Below the pieces are notes generated by a model. That model searched no databases. It was given only the letters and a program-made list of their open reading frames with translations, and was not told the DNA's origin. A DNA stretch of 32,000 nt from contig JASBSB010000006.1 in the NCBI GenBank assembly GCA_030149205.1, forward strand, positions 330,001 through 362,000, written 5' to 3'. The DNA is from Candidatus Heimdallarchaeota archaeon. GTDB taxonomy: Archaea > Asgardarchaeota > Heimdallarchaeia > Heimdallarchaeales > Kariarchaeaceae. This document shows, in pieces, positions 12,291 to 27,761 of this stretch (its first letter is position 1; every line of letters begins with the position of its first letter). The position numbers and the translations under genes were made by a program.

Positions 12291-13346
12291 TCATTTGTTA
12301 GTAGGAACGATAGCTAAATCTAGGGGTTTTTTGTTAGGTTGATAGGAAGAGTCATTGATTCTCGATGCGATCTCACGCACAGCGATACCTGCATGCTCCC
12401 GACCATTCTCAATGAAGATAGAGTTCGTGAATTTCCCAAATCCGACAGACCCGACTAGGAACAGACCATCAATGTTAGACTCAAAGCACTCCGTTAGATT
12501 GACCCGACCTGTCTCATCATCTGTATCCAATGAAAAGTTCTTCAATAATCCCAAATTTGGTCTAAAACCCGTAAGAATAAATGTGAAATCTGATTCAACT
12601 TTATCCTCTTTACCATCCTTTTCGAAATAAACGTACTGGTTGTCAATCTTTGTCACTCTAGCGGACATAATCGCGTTAATAGAACCCTCCGCAATTCTGT
12701 TAAGAAGATCAGGTGCCACCCAGTACTTTATTGTTGCTTTCACTTCCGGATGATTGTGCAACACTGTCACTTCAGCTCCATATCGATACAACTCCAGAGC
12801 AGCCTCAGCGCCTGAATTTCCAGCACCAATAATGGTCACCTTGTTCTTGAAAAATGGGTGCGGACTTGTAAAATAATGGCTGGTGTTATCTCCAAACTCT
12901 CCAGGAATACCGCCCAACCCCCTAGGAGTATCAAAGTACCCAGTTGCAAGTATGATGAATCGTGATTGTAGGCGTTTTTCAACAATTTTTCCAAAGCGTC
13001 GCTGGTTTAAAACGATTGTAAACTCATTAGCACTATTATCGATAATATCGATGACCTCAGTGTTCAGACGTATATCTAACGACTCCCTTTGAGCTATTAA
13101 TCGATAATAGTCTAGCGCGATCTGACGGGTAGGTTTGGTTAATGTTGACGGGAATGGGTGCCCACCAATTTCAAGAAGATCAGCTGTAGTAAAGAACGTC
13201 ATATTTTCCGGGAATTTATAGATGGAATTCGTCAGAACACCCCGCTCCACAACCAGGTAATTAATACCCATTCGCTTGGCATAGATCGCAGCAGATAACC
13301 CCACAGGTCCTGCCCCAACTATGAGTAAATCGATTGTTTGCACCAT
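12291..13346 (-). CDS. ypdA: YpdA/Bdr family FAD-dependent NADPH disulfide reductase (bacillithiol disulfide reductase-like)
   Basis: GAGPVG FAD site; NSIYKFPENMTFFTTADLLEIGG, PTRQIALDYY, ATGYFD, SHYFTSPHPF, IGAGNSG, FIENGREH all fit the YpdA family; no CxxC. Confidence 0.9.
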   Translation of the reverse strand: MVQTIDLLIVGAGPVGLSAAIYAKRMGINYLVVERGVLTNSIYKFPENMTFFTTADLLEIGGHPFPSTLTKPTRQIALDYYRLIAQRESLDIRLNTEVIDIIDNSANEFTIVLNQRRFGKIVEKRLQSRFIILATGYFDTPRGLGGIPGEFGDNTSHYFTSPHPFFKNKVTIIGAGNSGAEAALELYRYGAEVTVLHNHPEVKATIKYWVAPDLLNRIAEGSINAIMSARVTKIDNQYVYFEKDGKEDKVESDFTFILTGFRPNLGLLKNFSLDTDDETGRVNLTECFESNIDGLFLVGSVGFGKFTNSIFIENGREHAGIAVREIASRINDSSYQPNKKPLDLAIVPTNK

Positions 13347-13500
13347 ACTTGATCATAAGACGAGAAAAATATAAGAACAATGATAGAAACAGAAGAAAAC
13401 GATGAATACCCATCAAATTAAATTTCTAACCATTGCAGATATTCAGCTCATAAAACCACCAAATTAAAAAAAGATAAATTGAAGACCCCACCAATATTTA

Positions 13501-13661
13501 ATCAATAATTATCGATAAATATCGACATTAATATCAATATACACACTTCAATGACCTCAAAAAAATGACCCCCTAATCCACCCCCAAAGTTTGCCGAAGC
13601 CTAACACTACTGCCGATACACTATTATCGATTATATCGATAGTATTGTTGCCGAAATCGAT
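13501..13661. repeat. Cluster of ATCGAT/ATCRAY hexamers in the ypdA / cassette-1 divergent spacer
   Basis: ATCAAT 13501, ATCGAT 13511, ATCGAC 13521, ATCAAT 13533; ATCGAT 13626, 13635 and 13656; inverted repeat TATCGAT-TAT-ATCGATA at 13625-13641. Confidence 0.5.
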
Positions 13662-13749
13662 AAAAACAAGTTTTGAACAAACACATTTCCGATACAGGGT
13701 TTAAGCCAGATCCATCGCAACCAAAAAAATTTAATTATTGCAACGAGAT

Positions 13750-13790
13750 TTTTTACATACATTTGCCCTCCGGACAAAAACTTTATTAAT
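13750..13790 (+). promoter_or_regulatory. Promoter of cassette 1: TTTTTACATACATTT upstream element plus TATA box TTTATTAAT
   Basis: 15-mer at 13750-13764 and TATA at 13782-13790, 32 bp before the ATG at 13814. The same elements with the same spacing occur before cassette 2. Confidence 0.65.
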
Positions 13791-13813
13791 CTATTTTCCG
13801 TTTTTTTAGCTAA

Positions 13814-14881
13814 ATGAAGAGAAAAATCGTCCTTCAAGCCACAACCCTATTATTTCTGTTAATTCTGATGTCAATGCCTCTTCCAACCTCAGGAGTGATA
13901 ACTGTTGGGTGGAAGAGGGGGGACAAGTTCAAGCTAACAGGTTACAATTCAGTTGTGACTAATAATTCTCTTAATGGTGTAACAGTGAGTAATGGTCAGA
14001 ACATCATTACTTTAAATGAGAACTACCGAATTAATGACGTTTCTAAGGTCTCCCAATCGATAGTATTTTCTCGACCACCCTATAATTATGTGAACGAATT
14101 AAATACGAGTTATTCCTTGTCTACTTTTGAAGACGTATTCTTATCAAATTTCGGATTAACAAATGACTCATCTTGGCATTACTATTACCTTTTTCAACCT
14201 AATTTTCTGAGCCCTTCTGATTTTAGTCCCTACCTGAAATCTCGCTATATTTATTTACTATTATTTGTTAAACCAGATTGGCAGAAGATAGGTGAAAATT
14301 TAAGTTATCATTTCAATGCTAAATTAAAACCTAACAACTCAAACAGCTCTTCTGCATTATATAACGTATTTACAGCTCCAAATTCATCCTTTGTTTTTTG
14401 TGGAGCAACTACCCCTTCAGACATTCAAAAAGTTTTGAATCAGGATAGAAGATCTTGGAATTATAAATTTAATACTAAAGTTAAAACTAAAACAACTGAT
14501 AAAAATAAACAGGCCCTCATTGATTTTTCCTATTCATTTGATTTGAAGTACACTAAATCTGGAATGCTGGATTCTTATAAATACACTCAAATCGAAAAGA
14601 CAACCATGGATACCAGTGTCTCATCAGCTCTACCTCCGGGAAACTTGACAACAACTGTTCCTCAGTTAAAGATTTCTGTAGTGAAGGAAATTGGATTGAT
14701 AAGACTAAATGGTAGCTCTATGGCAACTGATAGCTACTCAGGGATTTTAAATTTATTGGGTAGTTTAAACCATCTAGATGTTGGCTCACTTGTTAGTCTA
14801 TTGGTGACTGTTGGTTTAATAGTTATTTTGATGAGGGTTCGTAAAAGGTTTCCAGGAAAAATAAAGAGGGTAATTGAGTGA
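13814..14881 (+). CDS. Secreted, C-terminally anchored surface protein, subfamily A copy 1
   Basis: Signal peptide; WKRGDKF, LFVKPDW, FCGAT, FDLKY motifs; several N-X-S/T sequons; C-terminal TM followed by RKRFPGKIKR. Confidence 0.85.
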   Translation: MKRKIVLQATTLLFLLILMSMPLPTSGVITVGWKRGDKFKLTGYNSVVTNNSLNGVTVSNGQNIITLNENYRINDVSKVSQSIVFSRPPYNYVNELNTSYSLSTFEDVFLSNFGLTNDSSWHYYYLFQPNFLSPSDFSPYLKSRYIYLLLFVKPDWQKIGENLSYHFNAKLKPNNSNSSSALYNVFTAPNSSFVFCGATTPSDIQKVLNQDRRSWNYKFNTKVKTKTTDKNKQALIDFSYSFDLKYTKSGMLDSYKYTQIEKTTMDTSVSSALPPGNLTTTVPQLKISVVKEIGLIRLNGSSMATDSYSGILNLLGSLNHLDVGSLVSLLVTVGLIVILMRVRKRFPGKIKRVIE

Positions 14882-15855
14882 TGAAATCAAGAAATTCAAT
14901 AAGTTTCAGCGTTTTGAAAAAAAGATGGTTGATTTCTTTAATTTTATGTTGCTATTTGGTTACATCTATACAGGTTATCTCAGTGGTTGGTCAAAATTTT
15001 CCCGCAGTAAAGATTGGGGACAGGTTTTCTTTTATATCTGAGTCCTATAAATCTAAAACTACCTCTTCACCCTTAAATAAGACAAGTAAGTCACAGAAAG
15101 ACATCTATGTAAACGAGGCAAACAGTTCATATCCATTTAAAGTAAGTGAGATATCAGGAAACAAAATATCAGTGCTTTATCCCAATCAACAGAGGGGCAC
15201 ATATGATGATTCAGTCTCCACCTTCGTTGACAGGTTTCTATCTGGTTTCCTTGCCTGGAGGGTCCTTTATCAGGCGACTGGATCCCCTTTATCAGTCGCC
15301 TTATATTCACCTCTGAATCCATCGCTGTTTGTCCAACCTGACTGGAAGACTATTGCTGGTGAGCTTTCTCGAAGATTGAATGGGACATATGACCTCAAGG
15401 GGATATACCCAACTACAAATTTGACAACTATATTAAATTCAGTCAATTCATTTAACCTGTTCGGTGCGACGAGTTCGTCTCAACTTCCTCAAAAGCTTAA
15501 TGAGCTTCGCAATTATTTTAGGTATACTTTTAACTATACAACCAGAGAATTGTATTTACCTATAAAACAGAGGTCACTGGTATTTGAGTTGAAATATAGT
15601 ATTGGTGGAATTCTTGAGCACTTGAAGACTTTTGAAACAATTTCTTATGACAATTATGGAAGTAAGGTTCTTGAAGTGAACTCTCGTATATTTAAACTTG
15701 TTAAATCCGTTTCCAATTCTCTGTCCCTCCCCAAATTCTCAATCAAAAGTTTAATTGTTATAAATTTTTTCAACCTATTGATTTTGATAGCAATCTTCAG
15801 GTCAAAGAGAAGAAAAATTGAGATTGAGGAAGTTAAGATTGAGGACACCAAATGA
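14878..15855 (+). CDS. Secreted, C-terminally anchored surface protein, subfamily B copy 1
   Basis: Start (GTG 14878 or ATG 14881) overlaps the A1 stop; VKIGDRF, LFVQPDW, LFGATS, FELKY; C-terminal TM NLLILI and basic tail. Confidence 0.85.
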   Translation: MMKSRNSISFSVLKKRWLISLILCCYLVTSIQVISVVGQNFPAVKIGDRFSFISESYKSKTTSSPLNKTSKSQKDIYVNEANSSYPFKVSEISGNKISVLYPNQQRGTYDDSVSTFVDRFLSGFLAWRVLYQATGSPLSVALYSPLNPSLFVQPDWKTIAGELSRRLNGTYDLKGIYPTTNLTTILNSVNSFNLFGATSSSQLPQKLNELRNYFRYTFNYTTRELYLPIKQRSLVFELKYSIGGILEHLKTFETISYDNYGSKVLEVNSRIFKLVKSVSNSLSLPKFSIKSLIVINFFNLLILIAIFRSKRRKIEIEEVKIEDTK

Positions 15856-16498
15856 CAGGTTTTTAACTTATTGACCTTAGATATAAGCTTAGATTTCAAC
15901 TGACGAATAAAATTGCTAAAACCTACCTGTTTCAGTTGAGAATTGTGTGAATTCACCCATGCTGATGGTTAATGGATAGGAGCATGCTTCTGATTTTATT
16001 GTTAGCAGCATCCTTTTTTATTAACTTATCACACTATTTTATCCTAAAAATAGCCGAAATTACAGATGAGATCTCTTGTTTTAATTCTCTCAAAGGAGTA
16101 TTGAATTATTCTCTGTATTAAAGGTGGTTAACAAATATTGTTGTTGCACTTGTTACAATTGTTTTGACTCTGCTTTTTTATGGTTTCTAAGTATTCAATT
16201 AGAGCCTTACTAACAAAAAATTGCCTACCTTAAGTTATCTCTTCAAACATCATAATACAAAAAGCGATATTTTCAAGAACTATTTTAGAATTAAATATAA
16301 ATTAAAAGCAACCTCCTTAAATTTGATATTGATAATATAAGGTAGAGGAGAAAAATAATTAGGATTAGATGAATCATTTGTAAAAATTCTAAAGTTAAAA
16401 CCTTCATATTTTTTTTATTTGGATAATCAATACAGGGGTTGAACCCACATGCTCTATTATCCCCAGTATATTTTGTTGAAAATTATTTTTTGTCGTAA

Positions 16499-16539
16499 TT
16501 TTTACATACATTTATTTAAAATACATAGCATTTATTAAT
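16499..16539 (+). promoter_or_regulatory. Promoter of cassette 2: TTTTTACATACATTT upstream element plus TATA box TTTATTAAT
   Basis: 15-mer at 16499-16513 and TATA at 16531-16539, 31 bp before the TTG at 16562; same 32-bp offset between the two elements as in cassette 1. Confidence 0.65.
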
Positions 16540-16561
16540 GCTTCATAATTATTTTACCTAA

Positions 16562-17620
16562 TTGAAAAGAAGATTTATATGTAGTGGCTTAGTTTTTTTA
16601 GTCCTTATGATTCTGGTATCATCCCTTGTTTCCACCTCAGGTGCAACAACAGTAAGTTGGAAGAAAGGGGATCAGTTTCGCCTCCTAGGGTATTACTCTT
16701 CTGAACAGAAAACCACCCTTAAGAATCAGCCTTCAAGCAATGATTATACTGAGATTACTTTAAGCGAGGATTATATCATAAAGAACATATCTGAGACTTC
16801 CAAAACAATAACCCTCTCTCGCTCTCCCTATACCTCTTCAAAGGGGCTGTCTTGGAGTTATTCCAAAATGTGGTTTGAAAGTTTGTTTCTTACAAGTTTT
16901 GGTTTAAGAAATAGCCTACTTGGTATCACATATCTTGGCACACTGTTTCTGAGGTCAACTGATTTATATCCTTCAAGTGGCTCTCACTTTTGGAATTTGC
17001 GTTTATTTGTAGAACCGGATTGGTCAGGGATAGGTAGCTATCTGAGTGAACAATTCAGTGCTGAAATGAATAAAATAGTAGGTGGGACTGATTCGTTATC
17101 TCAGAAACTTACCAGACCTCAAACTGCCTTTAATTTTTGTGGGGCAACAAAGCCTTCAGATATACCCAAGGTTTTAAATCAAACAAGAACCTCCTGGGAT
17201 TTTAAAATTAGCACTAAACTAAATGATACTCAAGGTGTAACTGTATACTTTTTTTCCTTTGATTTGAAATACAGATTAGATGGGAGATTGGAGTCTTTCA
17301 GTTTCAAACGGTCTTTGAAGTTTTCCAAGACCATCAGTGTCGCACCATCTCTCCCTCCTGGAAACTCTACTGTGACCCCACCTATCACAAGTATTCCTCT
17401 CTCTGAGGTTAAGAGTACAGATGAAGTTGGATGGGTTAGTTTAAATGGAAATCCACCTGGTTCAGATGCCTTCTCAGGAATTTTTAGGTTCCTGAGTGGG
17501 TTAAGCACCCTTGATGTTGCCTCACTTGGGAGCCTTGTAATGACTGGTGGATTACTGGTGATTTTACTGAAGGTTAGGAAAAGATTTCCAGGTAAAATAA
17601 AGAGGTTGAACGATTTATGA
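16562..17620 (+). CDS. Secreted, C-terminally anchored surface protein, subfamily A copy 2
   Basis: TTG start MKRRF, matching A1 MKRKI; WKKGDQF, LFVEPDW, FCGAT, FDLKY, LPPGN linker; TM followed by RKRFPGKIKR. Confidence 0.85.
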   Translation: MKRRFICSGLVFLVLMILVSSLVSTSGATTVSWKKGDQFRLLGYYSSEQKTTLKNQPSSNDYTEITLSEDYIIKNISETSKTITLSRSPYTSSKGLSWSYSKMWFESLFLTSFGLRNSLLGITYLGTLFLRSTDLYPSSGSHFWNLRLFVEPDWSGIGSYLSEQFSAEMNKIVGGTDSLSQKLTRPQTAFNFCGATKPSDIPKVLNQTRTSWDFKISTKLNDTQGVTVYFFSFDLKYRLDGRLESFSFKRSLKFSKTISVAPSLPPGNSTVTPPITSIPLSEVKSTDEVGWVSLNGNPPGSDAFSGIFRFLSGLSTLDVASLGSLVMTGGLLVILLKVRKRFPGKIKRLNDL

Positions 17621-18612
17621 GCACCAGAAATTCAAGAGATATTAATCTTACTAGATCGAACAGAAAAGGTGTACTTACATTGTTCTTGTGTTTATATCTG
17701 GTCGCATCTGCACCATTTGGTTCAGTAGTTGCTCAGGACACGCCCCCAGTGATGATTGGAGACAGTTATAATTTCATCTCTCAGACCTCCAGTTCTTATA
17801 CTTCAGTGTCACCTGCAACTAATTCAAGCAAATCACAGACGGTAGTGTACAACGAGTTGAGAAACAGTTCTCAATCCTTTAACATTAGTGGGATAACAAA
17901 TACAAAGATTTTGGCACTTTATCCTAATTTTCAAAGGTTTTCTTACGATTACTCAGTCTCATCAGTTGTTGACAGATTTCTCTCACAGTTCCTAGCCATT
18001 CATACCTACTTATCTATTCCTGGAGTACCCTCATCAATTTTCTTATATTCACCTCTGGTCACCTTTAACAATCCTGAACTATTGTTTGTCAGACCTGACT
18101 GGGTCGCTATTGCTGGGGAGCTCTCTCAAAGGTTAAATGCTGGGTTTATACTAAAGGGACAGTATTTCAATTTAACCTTGGGTAATCTGACAAATTCTGT
18201 CAATTCATTTGACCTGTTTGGTGCAAAGAGTATTTCTCAATTAGCTCAAAAGCTTCGTGGGCTTGTCAATTTTTACAGATATGCATTTAACTACACTGTG
18301 CATTCCTCAAACATTGAGAATCGATCCTTTGTATTTGAACTCAAGTATTCTGATAAGGGGATCCTTGAATATATGAGCACTGTTGAAACAGTCTCATTTG
18401 AAGTTCAGGGAAACAAGGTTCTAAGGGTGAATTCTGTAGTATTAAGTCTGGGTAAATCAGTGAACACAGCCAATCCAGTACCAAATCCAATCTTTTCGTC
18501 TTTAACTTTTTTTGGTATAACTCTTCTCAACCTCTTGATATTGATAACAATACTCTGGTCATTGAAACGAAAAACTAAGGTCGTGGAAGTTGGGGTGGAA
18601 GATATCAGATGA
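17617..18612 (+). CDS. Secreted, C-terminally anchored surface protein, subfamily B copy 2
   Basis: ATGA overlap with A2; VMIGDSY, LFVRPDW, LFGAKS, FELKY; TM NLLILI and KRK tail. Confidence 0.85.
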   Translation: MSTRNSRDINLTRSNRKGVLTLFLCLYLVASAPFGSVVAQDTPPVMIGDSYNFISQTSSSYTSVSPATNSSKSQTVVYNELRNSSQSFNISGITNTKILALYPNFQRFSYDYSVSSVVDRFLSQFLAIHTYLSIPGVPSSIFLYSPLVTFNNPELLFVRPDWVAIAGELSQRLNAGFILKGQYFNLTLGNLTNSVNSFDLFGAKSISQLAQKLRGLVNFYRYAFNYTVHSSNIENRSFVFELKYSDKGILEYMSTVETVSFEVQGNKVLRVNSVVLSLGKSVNTANPVPNPIFSSLTFFGITLLNLLILITILWSLKRKTKVVEVGVEDIR

Positions 18613-18734
18613 TAATCTGTAGACCTTTTAACCCTATATCTTCAGATGAAAACGGATGTAAAAGAAGTTATAATGCGCGAAAACAAACTGGTGTGTCGTA
18701 AAATATTTAAGCTTTTTACCAATTATAAAATTAT

Positions 18735-19775
18735 ATGCGTTGGATTACCCTTCTGATTATGTTCATGATTTCATCCATGCTGTTCGCACCTGTATCTAGT
18801 GAAGTTAAGGCTGAATGGAAAGGGGGTCAACATTTTAAGCTTTATGAAGTATCGTCGAATGGGCGTAGTTTTTTGTATGATAATCAACCATTCACGGAGA
18901 GCACTGAGAAGAGTCAGGTGACAATAAGCTACAGAATAATTGATGTAAACTACAACAATCAGACTATGATATTAGCGAAACCACCATACACTGTTACTCA
19001 AAACACTGAAAATTATTCTGCATCTTCTTTCGTGACTAGTTTTGTAACAAATTTTATTGCATTGCCAGGATTTGGTATTGGATCTCTATCAGAGTCAAAG
19101 CTCTATTTGTCATCTGGCCTTATTGAACCTTTAAATGTAAACATGCTTAAGAACCCCACTATCCAATTATTTGTAGAACCAGATTGGAAGAGCATTGGGA
19201 GCAGTTTAAGCGCATTGTTTTCTTCCAATCTAGATAAAGCAGGAGTCTATCATCCAATTTACACACTTACTGATTTCCTCTCTGGGACGAACACAAGTTT
19301 TGATTTTAATGGGGCCACAAAGGTGACAGACATACCGATTGTACTCAACCAAGCAGAAAGAAGTTGGAATTTTGAATATCACACCTTCCAGTCAATAGCA
19401 AGGGGGCTTGCTGAATATTCCTTTTCTTTTCAACTGAGTTACAAAACTTCTGGTATGCTTGACTTTTTCTCCTATAAGCAGATATACAAGTGGACAAAGC
19501 CTCCAGAGACTTTCGGAGTTGGTACGGGTTCAAGGGATTCAGTTTTATCAAAGACCCTAGCACAGCATGAAACCCGCAGCAAATTTGGAAGGATTAGCTT
19601 AAATTCCTCCATAATTGGATCAACCAATCCCTTTGATCTGTTGGGTCTTTTAGCTGGGCTTAATTCCATAGAAATTGGAATACTCCTTAATTTAGGGATA
19701 GTTCTTGTCCTGCTGGTTGTCCTATTCAGGGTACACAAGAGGTTCCCGAAAAAAATAAGGGGGTTGGATGAGTAG
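18735..19775 (+). CDS. Secreted, C-terminally anchored surface protein, subfamily A copy 3
   Basis: Signal peptide; WKGGQHF, LFVEPDW, FNGAT, FQLSY; TM followed by HKRFPKKIR. Confidence 0.85.
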   Translation: MRWITLLIMFMISSMLFAPVSSEVKAEWKGGQHFKLYEVSSNGRSFLYDNQPFTESTEKSQVTISYRIIDVNYNNQTMILAKPPYTVTQNTENYSASSFVTSFVTNFIALPGFGIGSLSESKLYLSSGLIEPLNVNMLKNPTIQLFVEPDWKSIGSSLSALFSSNLDKAGVYHPIYTLTDFLSGTNTSFDFNGATKVTDIPIVLNQAERSWNFEYHTFQSIARGLAEYSFSFQLSYKTSGMLDFFSYKQIYKWTKPPETFGVGTGSRDSVLSKTLAQHETRSKFGRISLNSSIIGSTNPFDLLGLLAGLNSIEIGILLNLGIVLVLLVVLFRVHKRFPKKIRGLDE

Positions 19776-20777
19776 TTGAATCATAAACACAGGACTTTTA
19801 GACCTTTAACCAGAAGATTGAAAATCAAGATTACCTTTTTGCTAGTTAGCACTTTATTGCTCATCTCAATATTTTCTCCTTCTGTAGTTGCTGTGACCCT
19901 ACTAAACGTTAATGTTGGGGATTATTATAAGATGACCTATACAAACCAGCGGAATGAAGCGTTGATCTCCACTTCTACAGGTTCTTCAAAAACTCCTGCA
20001 GCTGTGCAAAACTCCACCATAACTCAATCTATGGTATTTCAAATCGAACTTGCTAAAACTTCAGCACTTAATATTAAATTTAGTTCATTAGCCACAAAGA
20101 CGCTTAATCTAACAGCAACGTATTTTGCAGATCAATTTGTGAACCTGTTTCTAAGGATAAGTAGAGCCACCTTAAACAATGGAACCAATGTAACAATTGG
20201 AATTGATTCTCAGCTTAGTTCTCTGATTTTGACTAAATTTCAATACTTATTCGTAGACCCGAGTTGGACGGTGATTTCTACACTGCTTTCAGAGAGAATG
20301 ACACAGAACCTAAGTCTATCTTCTGGTTCGGGTGTTAAGCTTTCTGACCTTGGAAGCTATGTTGAAAGTTTCGATTTATTTGGTGCAAAAAGTCTTAATG
20401 AGTTACCTCAAAGTCTGAATCAACTGAAAAATTTCTTTTGGTATGAGTTGAACTTTAACATAATTACTTCCTCAGGGATAACAGAGAGACATTTTCTAAG
20501 GTTTGAACTAAAATACACAGAGCAAGGCATCTTAGATCACTATTCAAGCTTACAAACCATAGAATATAACAACTCTGGAGAGCAAACTCATATAGAGAAT
20601 TTGGAAACTATTACATTCAATCGTACAGATACCCAGAATCATATTCTTACGATCCTCAGCACAGAGAATCTTTTGCTTGTTGGTCTTTCACTTCTCAACC
20701 TTATAATTTTGATGGTAATAGTTAGAATTTGGAGGAGAAAGGGAAGAATTGTTGATTTGGATCCATACCAATCTTGA
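19776..20777 (+). CDS. Secreted, C-terminally anchored surface protein, subfamily B copy 3
   Basis: TTG immediately after the A3 stop; VNVGDYY, LFVDPSW, LFGAKS, FELKY; TM NLIILM and RRK tail. Confidence 0.85.
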   Translation: MNHKHRTFRPLTRRLKIKITFLLVSTLLLISIFSPSVVAVTLLNVNVGDYYKMTYTNQRNEALISTSTGSSKTPAAVQNSTITQSMVFQIELAKTSALNIKFSSLATKTLNLTATYFADQFVNLFLRISRATLNNGTNVTIGIDSQLSSLILTKFQYLFVDPSWTVISTLLSERMTQNLSLSSGSGVKLSDLGSYVESFDLFGAKSLNELPQSLNQLKNFFWYELNFNIITSSGITERHFLRFELKYTEQGILDHYSSLQTIEYNNSGEQTHIENLETITFNRTDTQNHILTILSTENLLLVGLSLLNLIILMVIVRIWRRKGRIVDLDPYQS

Positions 20778-20837
20778 TTTTTATCTCGTGCAAATAATTT
20801 AAGAATGTGAAAAATATGGGGAAAGCAAGTTAACCTC

Positions 20838-21977
20838 TCAAAGAACCCTTTTAATACATTGGACTGCAAACTCTATGTCTTCTTTGGTGATTCTTCCCAT
20901 ATGTCCGACTCTGAAATATTTACTTGCATATCCACCCTGTAAACCCCCTGCTACCATTAATCCCAGATCAAGTAATCTTTGACGAAAATTATTTCCATCT
21001 ACTCCTTCTGGATAGTATGGTGTCGAAAGAGTCGAGGCATAGCTTTCATCATGTGTTAGGAAGTTAAATCCAAGTTCTTCAAGAGAAGTTCTAAAGAGTT
21101 CTGCATTCTGTTTATGTCTGGTGTATCTTGATTCTAATCCTTCCTTTAGAACTATTTCTGTTGCATAGGAGTATGAGTTGATAAGGTTGGTTGCTGGGGT
21201 TGAGAAATATTTAGCGGACTCGTTTAAGTAGGCATCAATGACTGGCCACCAGTTATCAAGGTTAGAATAGTAAGAGGGAGGTTTTGCATTGTTATTCTCA
21301 ATGAGTTCTCTTGCCTTTTCTGAAAAGTTTAGTATTGCAAGCCCTGGTGGAGTTTCAAGGGCTTTTTGTGCACCTGTGAAATAAAGGTCAACACCCCATT
21401 TCTTTTGATAGACTGCTTCACCTCCAACTGCACAGACACCATCAACAACAGAAATTACTTCATTTTCTTGACAGATTCTGGAAAATGTAGATATATCATT
21501 TGCAACTCCTGTACTTGTGTCTACATGTTGGATATAGGCTATTTTGGGGTTATTTCTTTTGATACTCTCTTCGAACTCCTGTTCTGTGAACTTCTGTCCA
21601 ACCCTGCTCTCGACAAGTGAATTGCTGATCTGGAAATTATTGAGGAGTTGTTGAAACCTAATTCCGAAGTAGCCAGAGGAGAAAATCAGAGCCTTGTCTC
21701 TTTTTTGTGTGTTGATCAGGTTGACAACAGAAATTTCCATTGCCAAGGTGCCAGACCCACTTATGACAACAGGCGTGAAGGTGTCGTCAGTCCCAAATAT
21801 CTTTCGAGTGTTCTGTAATGCTAAGTTAAACCGTTGGATAAATTCTGGTTCTGTGTGAGATAATGCCCTTGTGTTTGCTTGTAAAACTCTTGGAGAGACT
21901 GGAGATGGTCCAGGTATCATCAGAAGAGGTGATTTTTTTGTGTAGGTAGAATTCATACCTGTTCTTATAAGAGACAT
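20838..21977 (-). CDS. Class V PLP-dependent aminotransferase (alanine-glyoxylate / serine-pyruvate type)
   Basis: LLMIPGPSPV, SGSGTLAME, HVDTSTGV, VVDGV, TGAQKAL (PLP lysine), FRVGHMG. ATG 21956 is an alternative start. Confidence 0.93.
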   Translation of the reverse strand: MSLIRTGMNSTYTKKSPLLMIPGPSPVSPRVLQANTRALSHTEPEFIQRFNLALQNTRKIFGTDDTFTPVVISGSGTLAMEISVVNLINTQKRDKALIFSSGYFGIRFQQLLNNFQISNSLVESRVGQKFTEQEFEESIKRNNPKIAYIQHVDTSTGVANDISTFSRICQENEVISVVDGVCAVGGEAVYQKKWGVDLYFTGAQKALETPPGLAILNFSEKARELIENNNAKPPSYYSNLDNWWPVIDAYLNESAKYFSTPATNLINSYSYATEIVLKEGLESRYTRHKQNAELFRTSLEELGFNFLTHDESYASTLSTPYYPEGVDGNNFRQRLLDLGLMVAGGLQGGYASKYFRVGHMGRITKEDIEFAVQCIKRVL

Positions 21978-22091
21978 AATTTCTACTTGTTCATACAGGT
22001 GGTTGTAAGTTGTTCCTTTGTTACAAAATATGGTGAAAAGTTGGGTAAGCCTAAAAGGTCTGGTATGTGGTTGATGAACTATTAGCCAGTT

Positions 22092-22370
22092 TCAACTTAG
22101 AGTTAGCCACAGGAGGACACTAAATGAAAGTGCTTCCAGAACCTCTAAAATAAACATAGGCATCCCCAATAGACTATCGAGATACATCATCGTTACCAGA
22201 AGATAGAGCGAGACAAGCTTTTGTACCATGAAAATACCGGTGAAGATGAGTAAGCCCATGGTGAAATTTGCCCTTATCTTTCTGTAAGATGAAAGATAAA
22301 GCGAGAATAGTACGGTAAGTATTACCAGATTTAGACCGGTTACTGTTATTGCAAGTTCCATCATTGTCAT
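22092..22370 (-). CDS. Small 3-TM membrane protein coupled to the wHTH regulator
   Basis: 92 aa with three hydrophobic helices; ATGA overlap with the upstream wHTH gene; resembles the small membrane partners found next to this archaeal wHTH family. Confidence 0.8.
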   Translation of the reverse strand: MTMMELAITVTGLNLVILTVLFSLYLSSYRKIRANFTMGLLIFTGIFMVQKLVSLYLLVTMMYLDSLLGMPMFILEVLEALSFSVLLWLTLS

Positions 22371-22663
22371 TGTTTTGTCTCCTTTGTTAACTGTAGCTTA
22401 TTCCATATCTCCAGGAATAAATCATAGGAATGGATCACATTTTCCTCGAGAAAATGTACTTTTCCATAACCGTTTCCCTCCTCCGAGATGATGTAATTTT
22501 TTTTTAGGATCTTTAGATGGTGAGTGACTGTCTTGTAATCGAGGTTCAAGGTCGTTGCAAGCTGATTTGCATTGTATGGTCTCTCATGTAATGCATGGAT
22601 TATTCTTGCTCTGTTGACTCCACCTTTTGTTCCCACAGTCAGATACCATAGGAGCCTTTTCAT
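22367..22663 (-). CDS. Archaeal ArsR-like winged helix-turn-helix regulator
   Basis: LLWYLTVGTKGGVNRARII...PYNANQLATTLNLDYKTVTHHLKIL...GYGKVHF. ATG 22663 (TTG 22666 alternative). Confidence 0.9.
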   Translation of the reverse strand: MKRLLWYLTVGTKGGVNRARIIHALHERPYNANQLATTLNLDYKTVTHHLKILKKNYIISEEGNGYGKVHFLEENVIHSYDLFLEIWNKLQLTKETKQ

Positions 22664-22682
22664 CAACCATCTTAGAATGATA

Positions 22683-22698
22683 GATACATTAATGTATC
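22683..22698. promoter_or_regulatory. Perfect 16-bp palindrome GATACATTAATGTATC, candidate operator of the wHTH gene
   Basis: Self-complementary over all 16 nt; lies 20-35 bp upstream of the wHTH ATG, where a TATA box would sit. Confidence 0.7.
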
Positions 22699-22711
22699 CA
22701 CATTATTAATC

Positions 22712-23719
22712 CTAACTGCTGAATTTTCGCTTGGAAATATATACACTCATCACAGCCAAAAATGTTAAGGAAATACCTACTGAGAGTAAATTCAGAGGTA
22801 ATCCAGATGAGCTGGTGGAACTCACGACTGATAGTTTTAAGCTTCCACTTGGAAACATGTTGACATTAGAGGTCATACTATAGGTCTTATGATCCACTGC
22901 ATTTTGAGGAATATCTCCTGCAAGTGGTTTAAATTGAAAAGGAGCTGGACTGTTATCCACCCTAGGTTCAATTGAAATTACCGTTTTTGCACCAGCTATA
23001 TTTGTTGGAAAGGTTAGTCCAGATGGAGCGTTTTTCAGAAAGTCTTCTCCTGGAAAGGGAGGTCCTCCTTGAGTGGAGCTGTATCCATCAAACTGATCTA
23101 CTCCAGTTGGCTTATCGAACTTTCCAGTGGTGACAGGAGTTCCGTTCATTACCACCCATCCCTCATATAACCAATCAGTATTGCTTAGGTCGGGAAGGAC
23201 AAGACCAACAGCAGGTGATCCAGAGGCGAGACTGAGATACCATATCCCAGAATTTTCATTTGTGTTTGCACCATCAGTTGGGGTTGCTAAAATGTAATCA
23301 CCCTTTACAGTATCAAATGATTTCCCTGTGTTTTGTGTGATTGTTGCTTTGTTAGTTTTTGTGTCAAATGTCCCAGCCAAGAGTTTTATGGAACTTGGTT
23401 GGTTGTTTGTGTCTCCTTTAGGTTCCAAGGTGAGGACAAATTTACTGATTTGTGCAGGGTCTACACCACTGACAGTAAATTGACTTATAGACTTCCCGTC
23501 AAGTGTCATAAGCTTTCCAGCTGAATCAACTGTGAATTTCCCTGTGGAGATGGGTGTCCCATTTACAATTATCCATCCCTCATAATGATCAGGTGAGGGA
23601 TTTGCAAGATTCGTGAATGTCAAGGTAATGTTGACAGATTGTGCATGTGTTGCTACGGGTAGATACATAAAAATGATCAGGGTGCCCAAAATCAACACAA
23701 GTAGACTTTTAGATTTCAT
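22712..23719 (-). CDS. Secreted surface protein with two tandem RskA-C/anti-sigma-like beta domains and C-terminal TM anchor
   Basis: ATG 23719 (MKSKSLLVL, signal peptide) preferred over the track start 23812; internal duplication YEGWIIVNGTPISTGKF / YEGWVVMNGTPVTTGKF; Ser-rich linker, TM and KRK tail. Confidence 0.8.
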   Translation of the reverse strand: MKSKSLLVLILGTLIIFMYLPVATHAQSVNITLTFTNLANPSPDHYEGWIIVNGTPISTGKFTVDSAGKLMTLDGKSISQFTVSGVDPAQISKFVLTLEPKGDTNNQPSSIKLLAGTFDTKTNKATITQNTGKSFDTVKGDYILATPTDGANTNENSGIWYLSLASGSPAVGLVLPDLSNTDWLYEGWVVMNGTPVTTGKFDKPTGVDQFDGYSSTQGGPPFPGEDFLKNAPSGLTFPTNIAGAKTVISIEPRVDNSPAPFQFKPLAGDIPQNAVDHKTYSMTSNVNMFPSGSLKLSVVSSTSSSGLPLNLLSVGISLTFLAVMSVYISKRKFSS

Positions 23720-23776
23720 ATTAAGTTCTTCCTTTTTGGTAATTACCTTTATCCGCTGGTATAAAATAGGATTTTG

Positions 23777-23863
23777 CCAAATTAGACCCAAGGGCTTACA
23801 GATTATCTCCAAAACATTCCCACATTCTTACCAAGTTTGTCCCAAATCTTACCCAAATCATCT
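23777..23863. repeat. Helically phased array of about 11-bp imperfect direct repeats (CCAAAT-like core)
   Basis: CCA cores at 23809, 23820, 23831, 23842 and 23853 (exactly 11 bp apart), plus 23777 and 23788; directly upstream of a minus-strand TTTTATA at 23760-23766. Confidence 0.6.
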
Positions 23864-23986
23864 GATTTTGTGAAGTTCAAAAATTATACAAATAAATTTG
23901 AGCTGAAGCTAGATTCAAACAGTTTTTTCTTGCATTAAAAATACATTTAGTCTGAGATTTATCCACGAGTATGGATTAGAAGGGCT

Positions 23987-25214: not shown

Positions 25215-25439
25215 ATGGTAAAAGCATACATATTCATAACAACATTAGGGGCTCATCAGATAGTGGAAAATCTAAAAAAGATTGAGGGGGTCAAAGAGAG
25301 TTTTAACATTATTGGCACTTATGACCTATTGATAATTGTTGAGGCACCATCCACATCCAAACTAAATCAGATAATCACAGATGCAGTTCGTCAGGTTGAT
25401 GGTATACAGAAGACTATGACGATGGTTGCATTGAACTAA
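25215..25439 (+). CDS. Stand-alone Lrp/AsnC effector-binding (RAM) domain protein
   Basis: 74 aa; KAYIFI, IIGTYDLLIIVEA and VDGIQKTMT motifs; no HTH. Confidence 0.9.
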   Translation: MVKAYIFITTLGAHQIVENLKKIEGVKESFNIIGTYDLLIIVEAPSTSKLNQIITDAVRQVDGIQKTMTMVALN

Positions 25440-26103
25440 ACGCAGCTTTATCAAGATAATAATCTGGATCATTTATAAGACTAATTGGGTAATTTTCACC
25501 TTGGGTAATTCTTCTTAGAATTTCACCTTTGTTAGATCCAGTCGCTAACACAAATTTATGAGTTGCTAAATTGATACAGGTTGGTGTCAAAGTTATTCTT
25601 ATTGATTTTTGATCCTCAAGAATTGTGTGTAACACCAATCTTTTTGCAAGTTCACCATGTTTTAAAACAGAGCTGTTTGGAAATAATGATGCTGTGTGAC
25701 CATCCTCTCCTAAACCTAACAAAACTATGTCTGGTCCAGATTTATGTAGTTTAATAAAAAGCTTTCTCAGTGTAGTCTCATAAGATTTTGCAACATCCTC
25801 AGGAGTTCCAACTTGAGCTGGAATTCTGTAGAAGTTTTGGGGATGCAAAGTCTCAAAAATCATTTTAGAATTACTTTGCTTATCTGAACTGTTGACCCAC
25901 CGCTCATCAACTTGGATAAAAAAGTAATGCGAGTTGATTTTATCTCTCAATGATTGATACAGCGTTCTTGGAGTGTTCCCACCTGAGAGAGCAATTATAC
26001 ATGAACCGGTATTCTGAATGAATTTTTCAGACAAATGTAGTAATTTATCCTCAAGGTGTTTGCTAATCTCAATTAAATCTTCTCCCACATCAGCAATTTT
26101 CAT
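25414..26103 (-). CDS. pgl: 6-phosphogluconolactonase (DevB type)
   Basis: ALSGGNTP, QVDERWV, LLGLGEDGHTASLFP, RITLT; divergent from zwf. Confidence 0.93.
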   Translation of the reverse strand: MKIADVGEDLIEISKHLEDKLLHLSEKFIQNTGSCIIALSGGNTPRTLYQSLRDKINSHYFFIQVDERWVNSSDKQSNSKMIFETLHPQNFYRIPAQVGTPEDVAKSYETTLRKLFIKLHKSGPDIVLLGLGEDGHTASLFPNSSVLKHGELAKRLVLHTILEDQKSIRITLTPTCINLATHKFVLATGSNKGEILRRITQGENYPISLINDPDYYLDKAAFSSMQPSS

Positions 26104-26222
26104 ATATTCTATTTATACAAGTTCTTTTCTTAAATTCGTTCTTTGGTTCTTATTCCTAGGTATTTTTCTGATATACATAGAAAATTTTGATAAGTAAGAA
26201 ATAAATGTACACGTGAATCTTT

Positions 26223-27761
26223 TTGAAAATTGATGTCGCTGAAAGTCAAATCTATAGTGGGATACCAGAGAGAACAGTTGTAATTATTTTTGGTGCTTCA
26301 GGTGATCTAACTAGACGAAAATTGATGCCTGCTTTTTATCATTTGTCTCGAGAGGGTCTCCTCCCCCAAAAAATGAGGATTATAGGGTTAGGAAGAAGAA
26401 TTCTTCTTGAAGATGAATTTATCTCTCACATGAAAAACAGGGTGATTCAGTATTGTACACATAAGATGGAAGACCGTTTTTGGTTGCCAATTGCTGATAA
26501 CATGTTTGCACTTAGAGCAGATTTCAAGGAGGATTCAACCTTTGAGACCCTTATTTCTGAGTTTGATAGACTCGAAAAGGAGTGGGGTGGTCCGATTAAC
26601 AAGCTTTTCTACCTTGCGACATCACCAAGCCACTTTGAGATAGTTTTACAGAAGATGATCCAATTTAGGCTACATGAGGAGATCGCTCCAAACTGGGTCA
26701 GGGTGATAGTTGAGAAGCCATTTGGCTTGGATCTTCAGAGCTCTGATTCCTTGAATCGTTTACTCTTGGAATCATTTCATGAAGATCAGATCTTCAGAAT
26801 CGATCATTTTCTTGGAAAAGAAGCGGTTCAAAACATCTTGATATTTAGGATGTCTAACCTTCTGTTTCAACCTGTCTGGAACAGAGAATTCATAGATCAC
26901 ATTCAAATCTCTATAGCTGAGACTGTTGGAGTTGAGGGTCGGGTTGACTTTTTTGAGCAGACTGGAGCGATCCGAGATATGATCCAGTCACATATTCTTC
27001 AGATTCTGGCATTTCTTATGATGGAACATCCTTCCTCCTTAGATCCAGAAATAATCCGTGATGAGAAAGTTATTCTTTTACGGGCAGTTCGACCATTCTC
27101 AAAGTCAAGCATACAGGAGAATGTTATAAGAGCACAGTATTCTGAAGGGGTGGTCAACTCACAGTTGGTACCTGCCTATAGAGATGAGGAGGGTGTTAAG
27201 AAAGAGAGCTTAGTTGAAACCTACGCAGCAATTAAACTGTTTGTGGATAATTATAGATGGAGGGGTGTCCCAATATATTTGAGAACTGGAAAAAGAATGG
27301 GTGCCAGAAAGACGGAAATAATTATTCAGCTCAAAGAGATTGATTCCACCTCTATGCCTACTGTTTTAGGTAAACAGAGACCCATCCCAAACACTATACG
27401 AATTGAGATTCAACCAAGGGCAGGGGTTGAATTAACTATTGGTTGGAAACCTCCTGGTCTATTGACTGAGGTTGAATCCACCTCATTGACCCTAGGGGCG
27501 AAGGCTCAGCTTAAAGAACCGAAGGCATATGAGAGGTTGTTGTTGGATGTTATGAGGGGAGATTCGACCCTGTTTATTCGATATGATGAAATCCGAGAGA
27601 TGTGGAAGATTGTCGATCCAATAATTAAATACTGGGAGAAGGAGAACAAGGAATTGAAAGCAAAGAACGAGACACTCCCCTCATATCCTGCAGGAACACA
27701 GGGGCCAAGAATTGCTAAAGCCTTTATTGAGAGAGACAATCGCAGCTGGAACAAGCTTTAG
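26223..27761 (+). CDS. zwf: Glucose-6-phosphate 1-dehydrogenase (bacterial/eukaryotic NADP type)
   Basis: TTG start; IFGASGDLTRRKLMP, VEKPFG, RIDHFLGKE, GAIRDMIQSH, WRGVPIYLRTGK, AYERLLLD. Confidence 0.96.
   Translation: MKIDVAESQIYSGIPERTVVIIFGASGDLTRRKLMPAFYHLSREGLLPQKMRIIGLGRRILLEDEFISHMKNRVIQYCTHKMEDRFWLPIADNMFALRADFKEDSTFETLISEFDRLEKEWGGPINKLFYLATSPSHFEIVLQKMIQFRLHEEIAPNWVRVIVEKPFGLDLQSSDSLNRLLLESFHEDQIFRIDHFLGKEAVQNILIFRMSNLLFQPVWNREFIDHIQISIAETVGVEGRVDFFEQTGAIRDMIQSHILQILAFLMMEHPSSLDPEIIRDEKVILLRAVRPFSKSSIQENVIRAQYSEGVVNSQLVPAYRDEEGVKKESLVETYAAIKLFVDNYRWRGVPIYLRTGKRMGARKTEIIIQLKEIDSTSMPTVLGKQRPIPNTIRIEIQPRAGVELTIGWKPPGLLTEVESTSLTLGAKAQLKEPKAYERLLLDVMRGDSTLFIRYDEIREMWKIVDPIIKYWEKENKELKAKNETLPSYPAGTQGPRIAKAFIERDNRSWNKL

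Follow-up and report, generated by a model that had tools for sequence, protein, structure and literature searches.

Tightly coupled gene pairs for paralogous, predicted surface proteins in a Heimdallarchaeia genome

Why should a single archaeal chromosome carry, side by side, six related genes for predicted surface proteins, arranged so that each second gene begins where the one before it ends? The question is raised by a 7-kb array in the genome of Candidatus Heimdallarchaeota archaeon (NCBI GenBank assembly GCA_030149205.1), within the 32,000 nucleotides (nt) of contig JASBSB010000006.1 analysed here (positions 330,001 to 362,000, referred to below as the window and numbered from its first letter). 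An earlier note, made from the sequence without database searches, described the array as three A-B cassettes, A1-B1 to A3-B3, and proposed that A and B form a heterodimer. That A and B are co-translated and form hetero-oligomers of a cell-surface coat, the cassettes being diversified variants, is the reading preferred here, as an evenly balanced proposition. It leans on gene structure, on membership of a family in which coupled pairs recur, and on phylogeny.

All six open reading frames (ORFs) listed in the note are present, on the plus strand and 325–355 amino acids (aa) in length (Table 1). The claim that every A stop overlaps or abuts the start of its B gene also holds, as all three junctions can be read from the sequence. 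At the first, the A1 stop TGA (14879–14881) overlaps a B1 start that is either the GTG at 14878 (GTGATG) or the ATG at 14881 (TGATG). The second is an ATGA with a 4-nt overlap (17617–17620), and at the third the stop TAG (19773–19775) is followed without a gap by a TTG at 19776. None of these junctions leaves space for a separate promoter. TTG is the probable start codon of A2 and B3, accepted because it restores N-termini homologous to those of other A or B proteins (A2 to A1; B3 to B1, B2 and B4). The public gene calls for A2 (P0007), A3 (P0009) and B3 (P0014) begin 15, 8 and 52 codons downstream of the homology-supported starts, and those for A2 and B3 lack the signal peptide. The start of A3 is not settled, since a second TATAAAA (18724–18730) would suit the later ATG at 18759 used in the public call.

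Each of the six proteins has an N-terminal hydrophobic, signal-like segment (judged by hydrophobicity rather than by a dedicated signal-peptide predictor), an ectodomain of ~270 aa, a C-terminal hydrophobic stretch (Kyte-Doolittle 2.3–3.2) and a basic tail of 15–18 residues. This is consistent with the predicted signal peptide, single C-terminal transmembrane helix and basic tail that the note had assigned to each ORF. Alignment of the six also reproduced its three shared motif blocks, with invariant columns (A1 numbering) at L150, F151, V152, P154, W156, I159, L163 and S164, at F193, G197 and A198, and at F242, L244, Y246, G250 and L252. The subfamily signatures were likewise recovered, FCGAT/FNGAT and (R)SW being specific to A, LFGA(T/K)S and FELKY to B. 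A and B proteins of this genome share 25–31% identity. Within the subfamilies, B2 is 51% identical to B1 and A2 is 44% identical to A1 overall, a value made up of 69% in the transmembrane helix and tail and 42% in the ectodomain.

The ectodomain is without a model in either Pfam or NCBIfam, and scans of the six proteins against both gave nothing above noise, so that the note was right to call the family unrecognised. Its suggestion of a choice-of-anchor surface family was not borne out, as the NCBIfam choice-of-anchor models matched neither the six proteins (E ≤ 1) nor the 59 members of the family profile (E ≤ 0.1). This profile consists of 59 sequences, mostly from other organisms, and the six proteins score E 1e-46 to 1e-55 against its positions 1–321 (A1: E 9e-55), which, for a mostly foreign profile, means homology far above chance. 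The core of the family comprises (x)P(D/S/N)W, the G of F/I-x-G-A/S, and Y-x3-G-x-L, all present in the six; W156 is nearly invariant and G250 invariant in alignments of 59 and 107 sequences. When 1.84 billion cluster representatives were searched exhaustively with a profile, 97 proteins were recovered at E ≤ 1e-3, 87 outside this genome and 10 within it, with the best outside match at E 9e-23. A word-indexed search of 5.8 billion proteins returned matches to this genome's own proteins alone. Nearly all outside members are 300–345 aa long and follow the same plan of signal, ectodomain, C-terminal transmembrane helix and basic tail.

With the 59-sequence profile, 33 of the 83 genomes in the window's class prove to have the family, including all 12 genomes of one taxonomic family (f7). 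The phylum-wide search, whose sensitivity was limited (E ≤ 1e-8, eight candidates scored per genome), gave no member in 184 genomes of other Asgard classes; it covered 251 genomes with a completeness of at least 80%, and each of the 26 that matched is of the window's class. The family has thus been found only in Heimdallarchaeia. The present genome has 11 copies at five separate chromosomal sites. These include a fourth cassette (A4-B4) on contig C8, again with an ATGA overlap, and three singletons (C4:798527-799522, C4:885302-886237 and C4:807786-808727, the last recovered by a broader profile); there is also a partial match at C4:968594-969025. Copies split in two or three pieces by stop codons occur in other genomes at the upstream end of otherwise intact arrays (G075:C55:179195-180154; G073:C51:19373-20321). 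Since both singletons and broken copies are found, the mode of evolution of the family is one of birth and death.

In a maximum-likelihood tree of 76 full-length members, and in a repeat with 47 rows including metagenome contigs, all 11 copies from the present genome fall together in a single clade, supported at 98 and 94 in the Shimodaira-Hasegawa-like approximate likelihood ratio test (SH-aLRT). Within it the four A proteins form a clade (SH-aLRT 95–99) and the four B proteins another (94–97), and the branching is ((1,2),3,4) in both. Because the A and B subclades are separate and congruent, the tree supports the history put forward in the note, in which one gene would have given rise to A and B and the A-B pair would then have multiplied as a unit. 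The number of cassettes has to be amended, however, from three to four, so the pair was not simply triplicated. In all these duplications A and B were copied together, and A-A or B-B units never were. The idea that A and B are ancient, family-wide types is ruled out by the single clade of this genome's copies and by an approximately unbiased (AU) test, which rejects a single cross-lineage clade of upstream genes (difference in log-likelihood 181, p = 1.8e-55), the upstream and downstream groups having been named after the tree was seen.

Coupled pairs are present in at least five other lineages, namely genome G006 (family f1), genus g11 (family f2), family f7 and two metagenome contigs. The fetched loci contain 32 adjacent, same-strand pairs of family genes, 18 with gaps of −11 to 0 nt and 14 with gaps of 52–117 or more than 700 nt; further coupled pairs, with gaps of +1 and +5 nt, come from the two metagenome contigs. 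One of these contigs carries two upstream-downstream pairs in tandem, each with a 5-nt gap and the two separated by ~540 nt, a layout closely resembling that of the window. In every pair-bearing lineage the upstream and downstream partners are sister clades, their divergence ranging from shallow (locus L068) to deep (this genome, with the identity given above). Two histories would fit, at least six independent origins of coupled pairs or concerted evolution that has homogenised a single old pair within each lineage; either one implies that selection has maintained the joint production of two differing copies. Sister paralogs are what one would expect where a protein that binds itself is duplicated and its copies go on to form a heteromer. 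The A-B synteny that the note proposed to look for in other genomes is partly there, in the form of coupled pairs in at least five lineages, but singletons are common and the A and B types are not shared across lineages.

The same observations bear on a different explanation, in which these are independent surface proteins that are merely co-expressed. Within a compact genome, tandem duplicates would have drifted into overlapping operon partners that act alone or as homo-oligomers, for example as adhesins, receptors or coat variants, and the array would be a birth-and-death repertoire diversified by selection from viruses, partners or grazers. This would account well for the common singletons, three of them in this genome, for the broken copies in arrays, for the fast divergence and lack of a member in three same-genus genomes, and for the position of the array within a 10.6-kb lineage-specific insertion, and it would sit comfortably with a complex prediction that is only weak. 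It does not easily explain why the overlap or abutment is kept in all four cassettes despite an A-B identity of 25–31%, why coupling is seen in at least five other lineages with a bimodal distribution of gaps, why duplication always involved A-B units, or why A and B keep subfamily-specific tails and stalk lengths. Independent action of the proteins is therefore judged rather unlikely, although it is a serious competitor.

Several findings weigh against A-B hetero-oligomers of a coat. Singletons make up 23 of the 76 full-length genes sampled, three of these in this genome, and the fold can therefore evidently work without a paired partner. The arrays of family f7 have a third, uncoupled member ~110 nt downstream of the coupled pair. 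With the 59-sequence profile no member was found in three other species of the same genus (82–89% complete), and the family is therefore dispensable. The description of the proteins as sequon-rich is correct as a density, with 1.81 N-x-S/T per 100 aa in the six proteins vs 0.57 in 11 neighbouring ORFs, a threefold difference, but not as a specific enrichment, since composition-preserving shuffles gave p = 0.1–0.5; the density therefore reflects an N/S/T-rich composition. A coat is, moreover, only one of several possible surface roles.

Structure prediction of an A-B complex was made for one pair, A1 (residues 28–310) with B1 (39–288), using a 59-row alignment per chain. The outcome was classed as 'weak support', with a median score of 0.39 (best of three controls 0.00), runs that agree in at least 21% of contacts, and a partner predicted local distance difference test (pLDDT) value of at least 79. 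In the benchmark of this score 58 of 80 solved complexes and 2 of 110 mismatched pairs attained the mark, but among the complexes only 7 of the 80 did so at scores of 0.60 or below, as did both passing mismatches. These counts hold only roughly here, since the prediction used alignments built for this analysis. The score raises the odds that A binds B only slightly. As A and B are paralogs, it may stem from a surface by which members of the family self-associate in general, and not from an interface specific to A and B, a further point against the hetero-oligomer reading. As to the obligate 1:1 heterodimer of the earlier note, the coupling kept in four cassettes, the pairs in at least five other lineages and the weak support from complex prediction speak for it, but the 23 singletons among 76 genes speak against it.

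The C-terminal ends suggest how the proteins may be held at the surface. Heimdall-CTERM (NF045529), a 26-position sorting-domain model with a cut-off of 24 bits, matches 10 of the 59 profile members and Loki-CTERM (NF033507) 3 of 59 (both at E ≤ 0.1), while the Pfam PGF-CTERM model matches one of the 59, weakly. Many outside members have GGL...PGFE or GGL...NFA...IPA just before the C-terminal helix, followed by a short basic end. A PGF/GFE-like or NFA-like motif precedes the transmembrane helix in 64 of 147 other members, whereas all 11 copies in the present genome lack a PGF- or NFA-like motif in that position. NF045529 matched none of the six window proteins, whether scanned whole (E ≤ 1) or as C-terminal segments of 76–86 residues (E ≤ 10), and no sorting-signal model matched the ten tails of this genome that were scanned (eight from A and B proteins, two from singletons). 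In the eight paired proteins the helix is followed by 15–18 residues, vs a family median of 7 (interquartile range 5–9). The A tails contain KRFPGKIKR or a variant of it, and the B tails are first basic and then acidic. The genome encodes several other Heimdall-CTERM proteins and an exosortase/archaeosortase-domain protein (C2:525029-525298; TIGR04178, 40 bits against a cut-off of 23), but a search of it with PF09721 gave no match, so that the evidence for an enzyme of the ArtA type is ambiguous. Since NCBIfam models recognise its C-terminal end, the wider family may be regarded as cargo of a catalogued Asgard sorting signal, the paired copies of this genome probably having permanent type-I anchors and not being cleaved cargo. 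The names Heimdall-CTERM and Loki-CTERM were not found in the literature searched; the signal is catalogued but unpublished.

The AlphaFold2 model of the A1 ectodomain, based on 107 sequences (pLDDT 78.4, predicted template-modelling score 0.80), consists of four N-terminal strands, two of them very long, a helical segment of ~100 residues and five long strands. The ectodomain is predicted to be a helix-filled, beta-barrel-like domain of ~270 aa without a known relative, and a new fold is not claimed. Fold searches with two models, among them the Foldseek check advised in the note, gave no convincing relative in PDB, AFDB clusters, AFDB Swiss-Prot, the ESM Atlas or a wide VIA-align search. The highest VIA Z scores were 7.1 (first model) and 6.4 (second model), under the noise guide of ~8, template-modelling (TM) scores in the Atlas did not exceed 0.45, and Foldseek with the improved model found no match in PDB at E ≤ 1e-3. 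A feature search of the ESM Atlas returned unnamed archaeal clusters only. Matches to porins, secretins and autotransporters were rejected as shape-only, the ectodomains being soluble and the organism an archaeon without an outer membrane.

Taken together, the matches mix outer-membrane barrels, the N-terminal barrel of lipovitellin, ApoB and MTP, a few lipoprotein-like barrels and DUF6263, and the lipid-binding barrels among these weak resemblances count against a coat. They would fit membrane-tethered carriers or sensors of a hydrophobic ligand, with a barrel of the LolA/LppX or vitellogenin/MTP type and the pairs forming a two-part shuttle. The lipovitellin/vitellogenin/ApoB/MTP barrel is repeatedly listed (VIA Z 5.7–6.5 over 150–160 residues, root-mean-square deviation 5.2–5.6), as are the putative lipoprotein 4fvs (Z 6.5), LpqH, LmcA and LolA (Z 3.9–4.9), and DUF6263 and DUF3108-like clusters (TM 0.3–0.45). 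All of these are nevertheless below the level that the tools treat as meaningful (Z 8, TM 0.5); for the vitellogenin/MTP/ApoB barrel the Foldseek TM scores were 0.2–0.3, and Pfam gave no match. Outer-membrane porins score equally, the signal probably being just that of a 'large curved antiparallel sheet', and there are no conserved lipid-handling genes beside the arrays. A carrier or sensor role is thus quite improbable.

Upstream of A1 and A2 there is an identical 15-mer, TTTTTACATACATTT, at −64/−63 and an identical TATA-like 9-mer, TTTATTAAT, at −32/−31, and the duplicated unit therefore appears to have taken in its promoter region. The start of each A gene is preceded by a TATA-like box whose centre is ~28 nt away, and runs of four or five T residues lie within 20 nt after each B stop (T5 at 15860–15864 for B1, T4 at 18626–18629 for B2, T5 at 20778–20782 for B3). 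The upstream elements presumably act as promoters, and the layout would fit three bicistronic, nearly leaderless mRNAs. The spacer between cassettes 1 and 2 (706 nt) is much longer than that between cassettes 2 and 3 (122 nt). It holds no plus-strand ORF of 100 aa or more, and just a 100-aa reverse-strand ORF (15654–15956) enters its first 100 nt. An Rfam scan of positions 13000–21500 matched no RNA family.

Table 1. Positions of the array genes, putative regulatory elements and neighbouring genes within the window
Feature	Position	Strand	Description
A1	13814–14881	+	355 aa; predicted signal peptide, beta-rich ectodomain of ~270 aa, juxtamembrane segment, transmembrane helix, cytoplasmic tail ending KRFPGKIKR
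B1	14878–15855	+	325 aa (324 from ATG 14881); long basic N-region and hydrophobic segment, ectodomain, transmembrane helix, basic-then-acidic tail
A2	16562–17620	+	352 aa; probable TTG start by homology with the A1 N-terminus; A1-like architecture and tail motif
B2	17617–18612	+	331 aa; ATG overlaps the A2 stop by 4 nt (ATGA)
A3	18735–19775	+	346 aa; variant tail motif HKRFPKKIR
B3	19776–20777	+	333 aa; probable TTG start by homology with the B1, B2 and B4 N-regions
Cassette-1 promoter-like region	13750–13790	+	15-nt element TTTTTACATACATTT at 13750–13764; TATA-like TTTATTAAT at 13782–13790, centre ~28 nt before the A1 ATG
Spacer between cassettes 1 and 2	15856–16561	.	706 nt, very AT-rich; T5 run at 15860–15864, 5 nt past the B1 stop
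Cassette-2 promoter-like elements	15-mer 16499–16513; TTTATTAAT 16531–16539	.	At the 3' end of the 706-nt spacer
TATA-like ATATTTAAG	18703–18711	+	Centre ~28 nt before the A3 ATG
ArsR-type winged helix-turn-helix gene (99 aa) and membrane-protein gene (92 aa)	22092–22666	-	4-nt overlap; membrane protein with two or three hydrophobic helices
RskA_C-like surface protein	22712–23812	-	366 aa; signal segment, weak RskA_C (anti-sigma-K C-terminal) match at E 8e-7, C-terminal transmembrane helix, basic end; unrelated to the family

The surroundings of the array differ from those in related genomes. In two genomes of the same genus, genes for an oxidoreductase, a small ORF, 6-phosphogluconolactonase and glucose-6-phosphate dehydrogenase (G6PD) follow one another in this order, with ~240 nt between the first two. 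In the present genome the oxidoreductase and the small ORF are 10.6 kb apart (window 13347–23986), and the oxidoreductase is inverted. The interval contains the array, an aminotransferase, the small membrane protein, the ArsR-type regulator and the RskA_C-like surface protein, and the array is, on this comparison of gene order, apparently a lineage-specific addition. One might then suppose that a virus or mobile element brought the genes in as cargo with the 10.6-kb insertion, perhaps as those of a two-subunit envelope or entry protein, as the array segment is missing from the syntenic site in the two same-genus genomes and the family is patchily distributed. This is very unlikely indeed: searches of IMG/VR viral contigs and GenBank phage records gave no relative, the insertion has no integrase, capsid or other mobile-element gene, its GC content is like that of its surroundings, and copies of the family are present at five separate chromosomal sites.

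Beyond the interval, 6-phosphogluconolactonase and G6PD, genes of the oxidative pentose-phosphate pathway, are located at 25414–27761 of the window. The nearest matches of the G6PD are two records of the Heimdall group at 63% identity, followed by bacterial ones at 34–45%, a hint that the gene may have come from bacteria. A further predicted surface protein, of 243 aa, is encoded upstream of the fourth cassette on the opposite strand (L007:154-885, minus strand); it has a signal segment, a C-terminal transmembrane helix, a basic tail and no Pfam match. Winged helix-turn-helix regulators are divergently placed beside family genes at the S2 locus of this genome (L010:2925-3449) and at f7 arrays (e.g. 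L069:14158-14808), a loose association that may be due to chance. In family f7 a protein of ~1,150 aa with FG-GAP/beta-propeller repeats is encoded directly downstream of the array on the same strand (L079:13907-17380, plus strand; L072:4444-8043; L073:4988-8458). No neighbour is common across families; within f7 the common ones are the winged helix-turn-helix/ArsR-like gene upstream and the FG-GAP beta-propeller gene downstream. Given this, no functional inference is drawn from the neighbours. In one other genome (L066; GCA_048938105.1, JBHLMN010000029.1) the surroundings of a singleton member include no fewer than five small GTPase genes of the Ras/Roc type, together with a RagA-like gene, a Kelch beta-propeller protein and an AbiEi/AbiEii pair.

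The coat of Asgard cells gives the reading of A and B as co-translated partners its setting. Asgard cells are thought to use their coat for the cell-cell contacts invoked in models of eukaryote origin. In cultured Asgard archaea, cryo-electron tomography has shown an amorphous protein layer and numerous surface proteins but no ordered surface layer (S-layer), according to the parts of two accounts that were consulted, and those parts do not name the proteins of the layer (10.1101/2025.11.06.686947; PMC9834061). On the preferred reading, the region would comprise three two-gene units with promoters of their own, the fourth being on another contig, and each gene would give rise to a type-I membrane-anchored, probably N-glycosylated cell-surface protein. 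A and B would be translated from one mRNA, with the overlap of stop and start coupling their translation and yielding similar amounts of each. Hetero-oligomers of A and B would most likely assemble at the external membrane surface and be a component of the amorphous coat, the cassettes representing fast-diverging variants of one A-B complex. Other lineages would mostly hold the family by a Heimdall-CTERM/PGF-like signal; here a permanent transmembrane helix with a cytoplasmic tail of 15–18 residues would take its place.

A class-specific, multi-copy and fast-evolving family of anchored proteins is a concrete candidate component of the amorphous Asgard coat. The recurrent coupled paralog pairs, duplicated as units, also offer an unusually clean natural series on the change from homomer to obligate heteromer. 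The ectodomain merits a family model, and several public gene calls are truncated at the N-terminus. A bolder version would have at least six lineages turn a self-associating surface protein into a coupled complex of two paralogs that forms the main coat, with permanent transmembrane anchors in place of a cleavable sorting signal in the present genome and conserved tails that link it to a cytoplasmic partner, in the manner of a eukaryote-style type-I heterodimeric receptor or coat. This is improbable; if true, it would place a eukaryote-style heterodimeric surface complex in a close archaeal relative of eukaryotes.

Of known systems, the nearest catalogued class is Heimdall-CTERM cargo, and the general kind, C-terminally anchored archaeal surface glycoproteins, is an established one. 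The novelty lies in the ectodomain family, in its confinement to Heimdallarchaeia, in the repeated occurrence of coupled paralogs, and in the change, in this genome, from a sorting signal to what appears to be a permanent anchor with a conserved tail. Cargo of Heimdall-CTERM, Loki-CTERM and PGF-CTERM resembles the wider family in having a signal peptide, an extracytoplasmic domain, a C-terminal motif, a transmembrane helix and a short basic tail. Models of the Heimdall-CTERM type, however, cover the 26-residue sorting tag and leave out the ectodomain, and the six proteins of the window have the helix and basic residues without the signature motif and with a longer tail. The N-terminal barrel of vitellogenin, MTP and ApoB and the bacterial DUF6263 and DUF3108-like domains, which are the best likenesses other than porins, share with the model a large antiparallel sheet around helices, but with Z ≤ 6.5, TM ≤ 0.45, 6–11% identity and no sequence-profile link the likeness is one of shape only.

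Archaeal S-layers are built from abundant, glycosylated envelope proteins with a C-terminal transmembrane helix or sorting signal, and in the Sulfolobales two co-encoded subunits, SlaA and SlaB, are used. These proteins, and the PGF-CTERM-anchored S-layer glycoproteins of haloarchaea, are like A and B in their C-terminal anchoring and, in the Sulfolobales, in the co-encoding of two subunits. SlaA and SlaB are, in contrast, unrelated to each other and much larger, A and B being paralogs of ~330 aa. S-layer proteins are very abundant and self-assemble into a two-dimensional lattice over the cell, whereas cultured Asgard cells, in the parts of the tomographic accounts that were consulted, have no ordered lattice. 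A general parallel is offered by paralogous heteromers, which match the within-lineage sister paralogs of this family, adjacent, translationally coupled and duplicated as units. The difference is that the self-association of singletons and the hetero-association of pairs are putative here, and that an origin in at least six lineages would be unusual.

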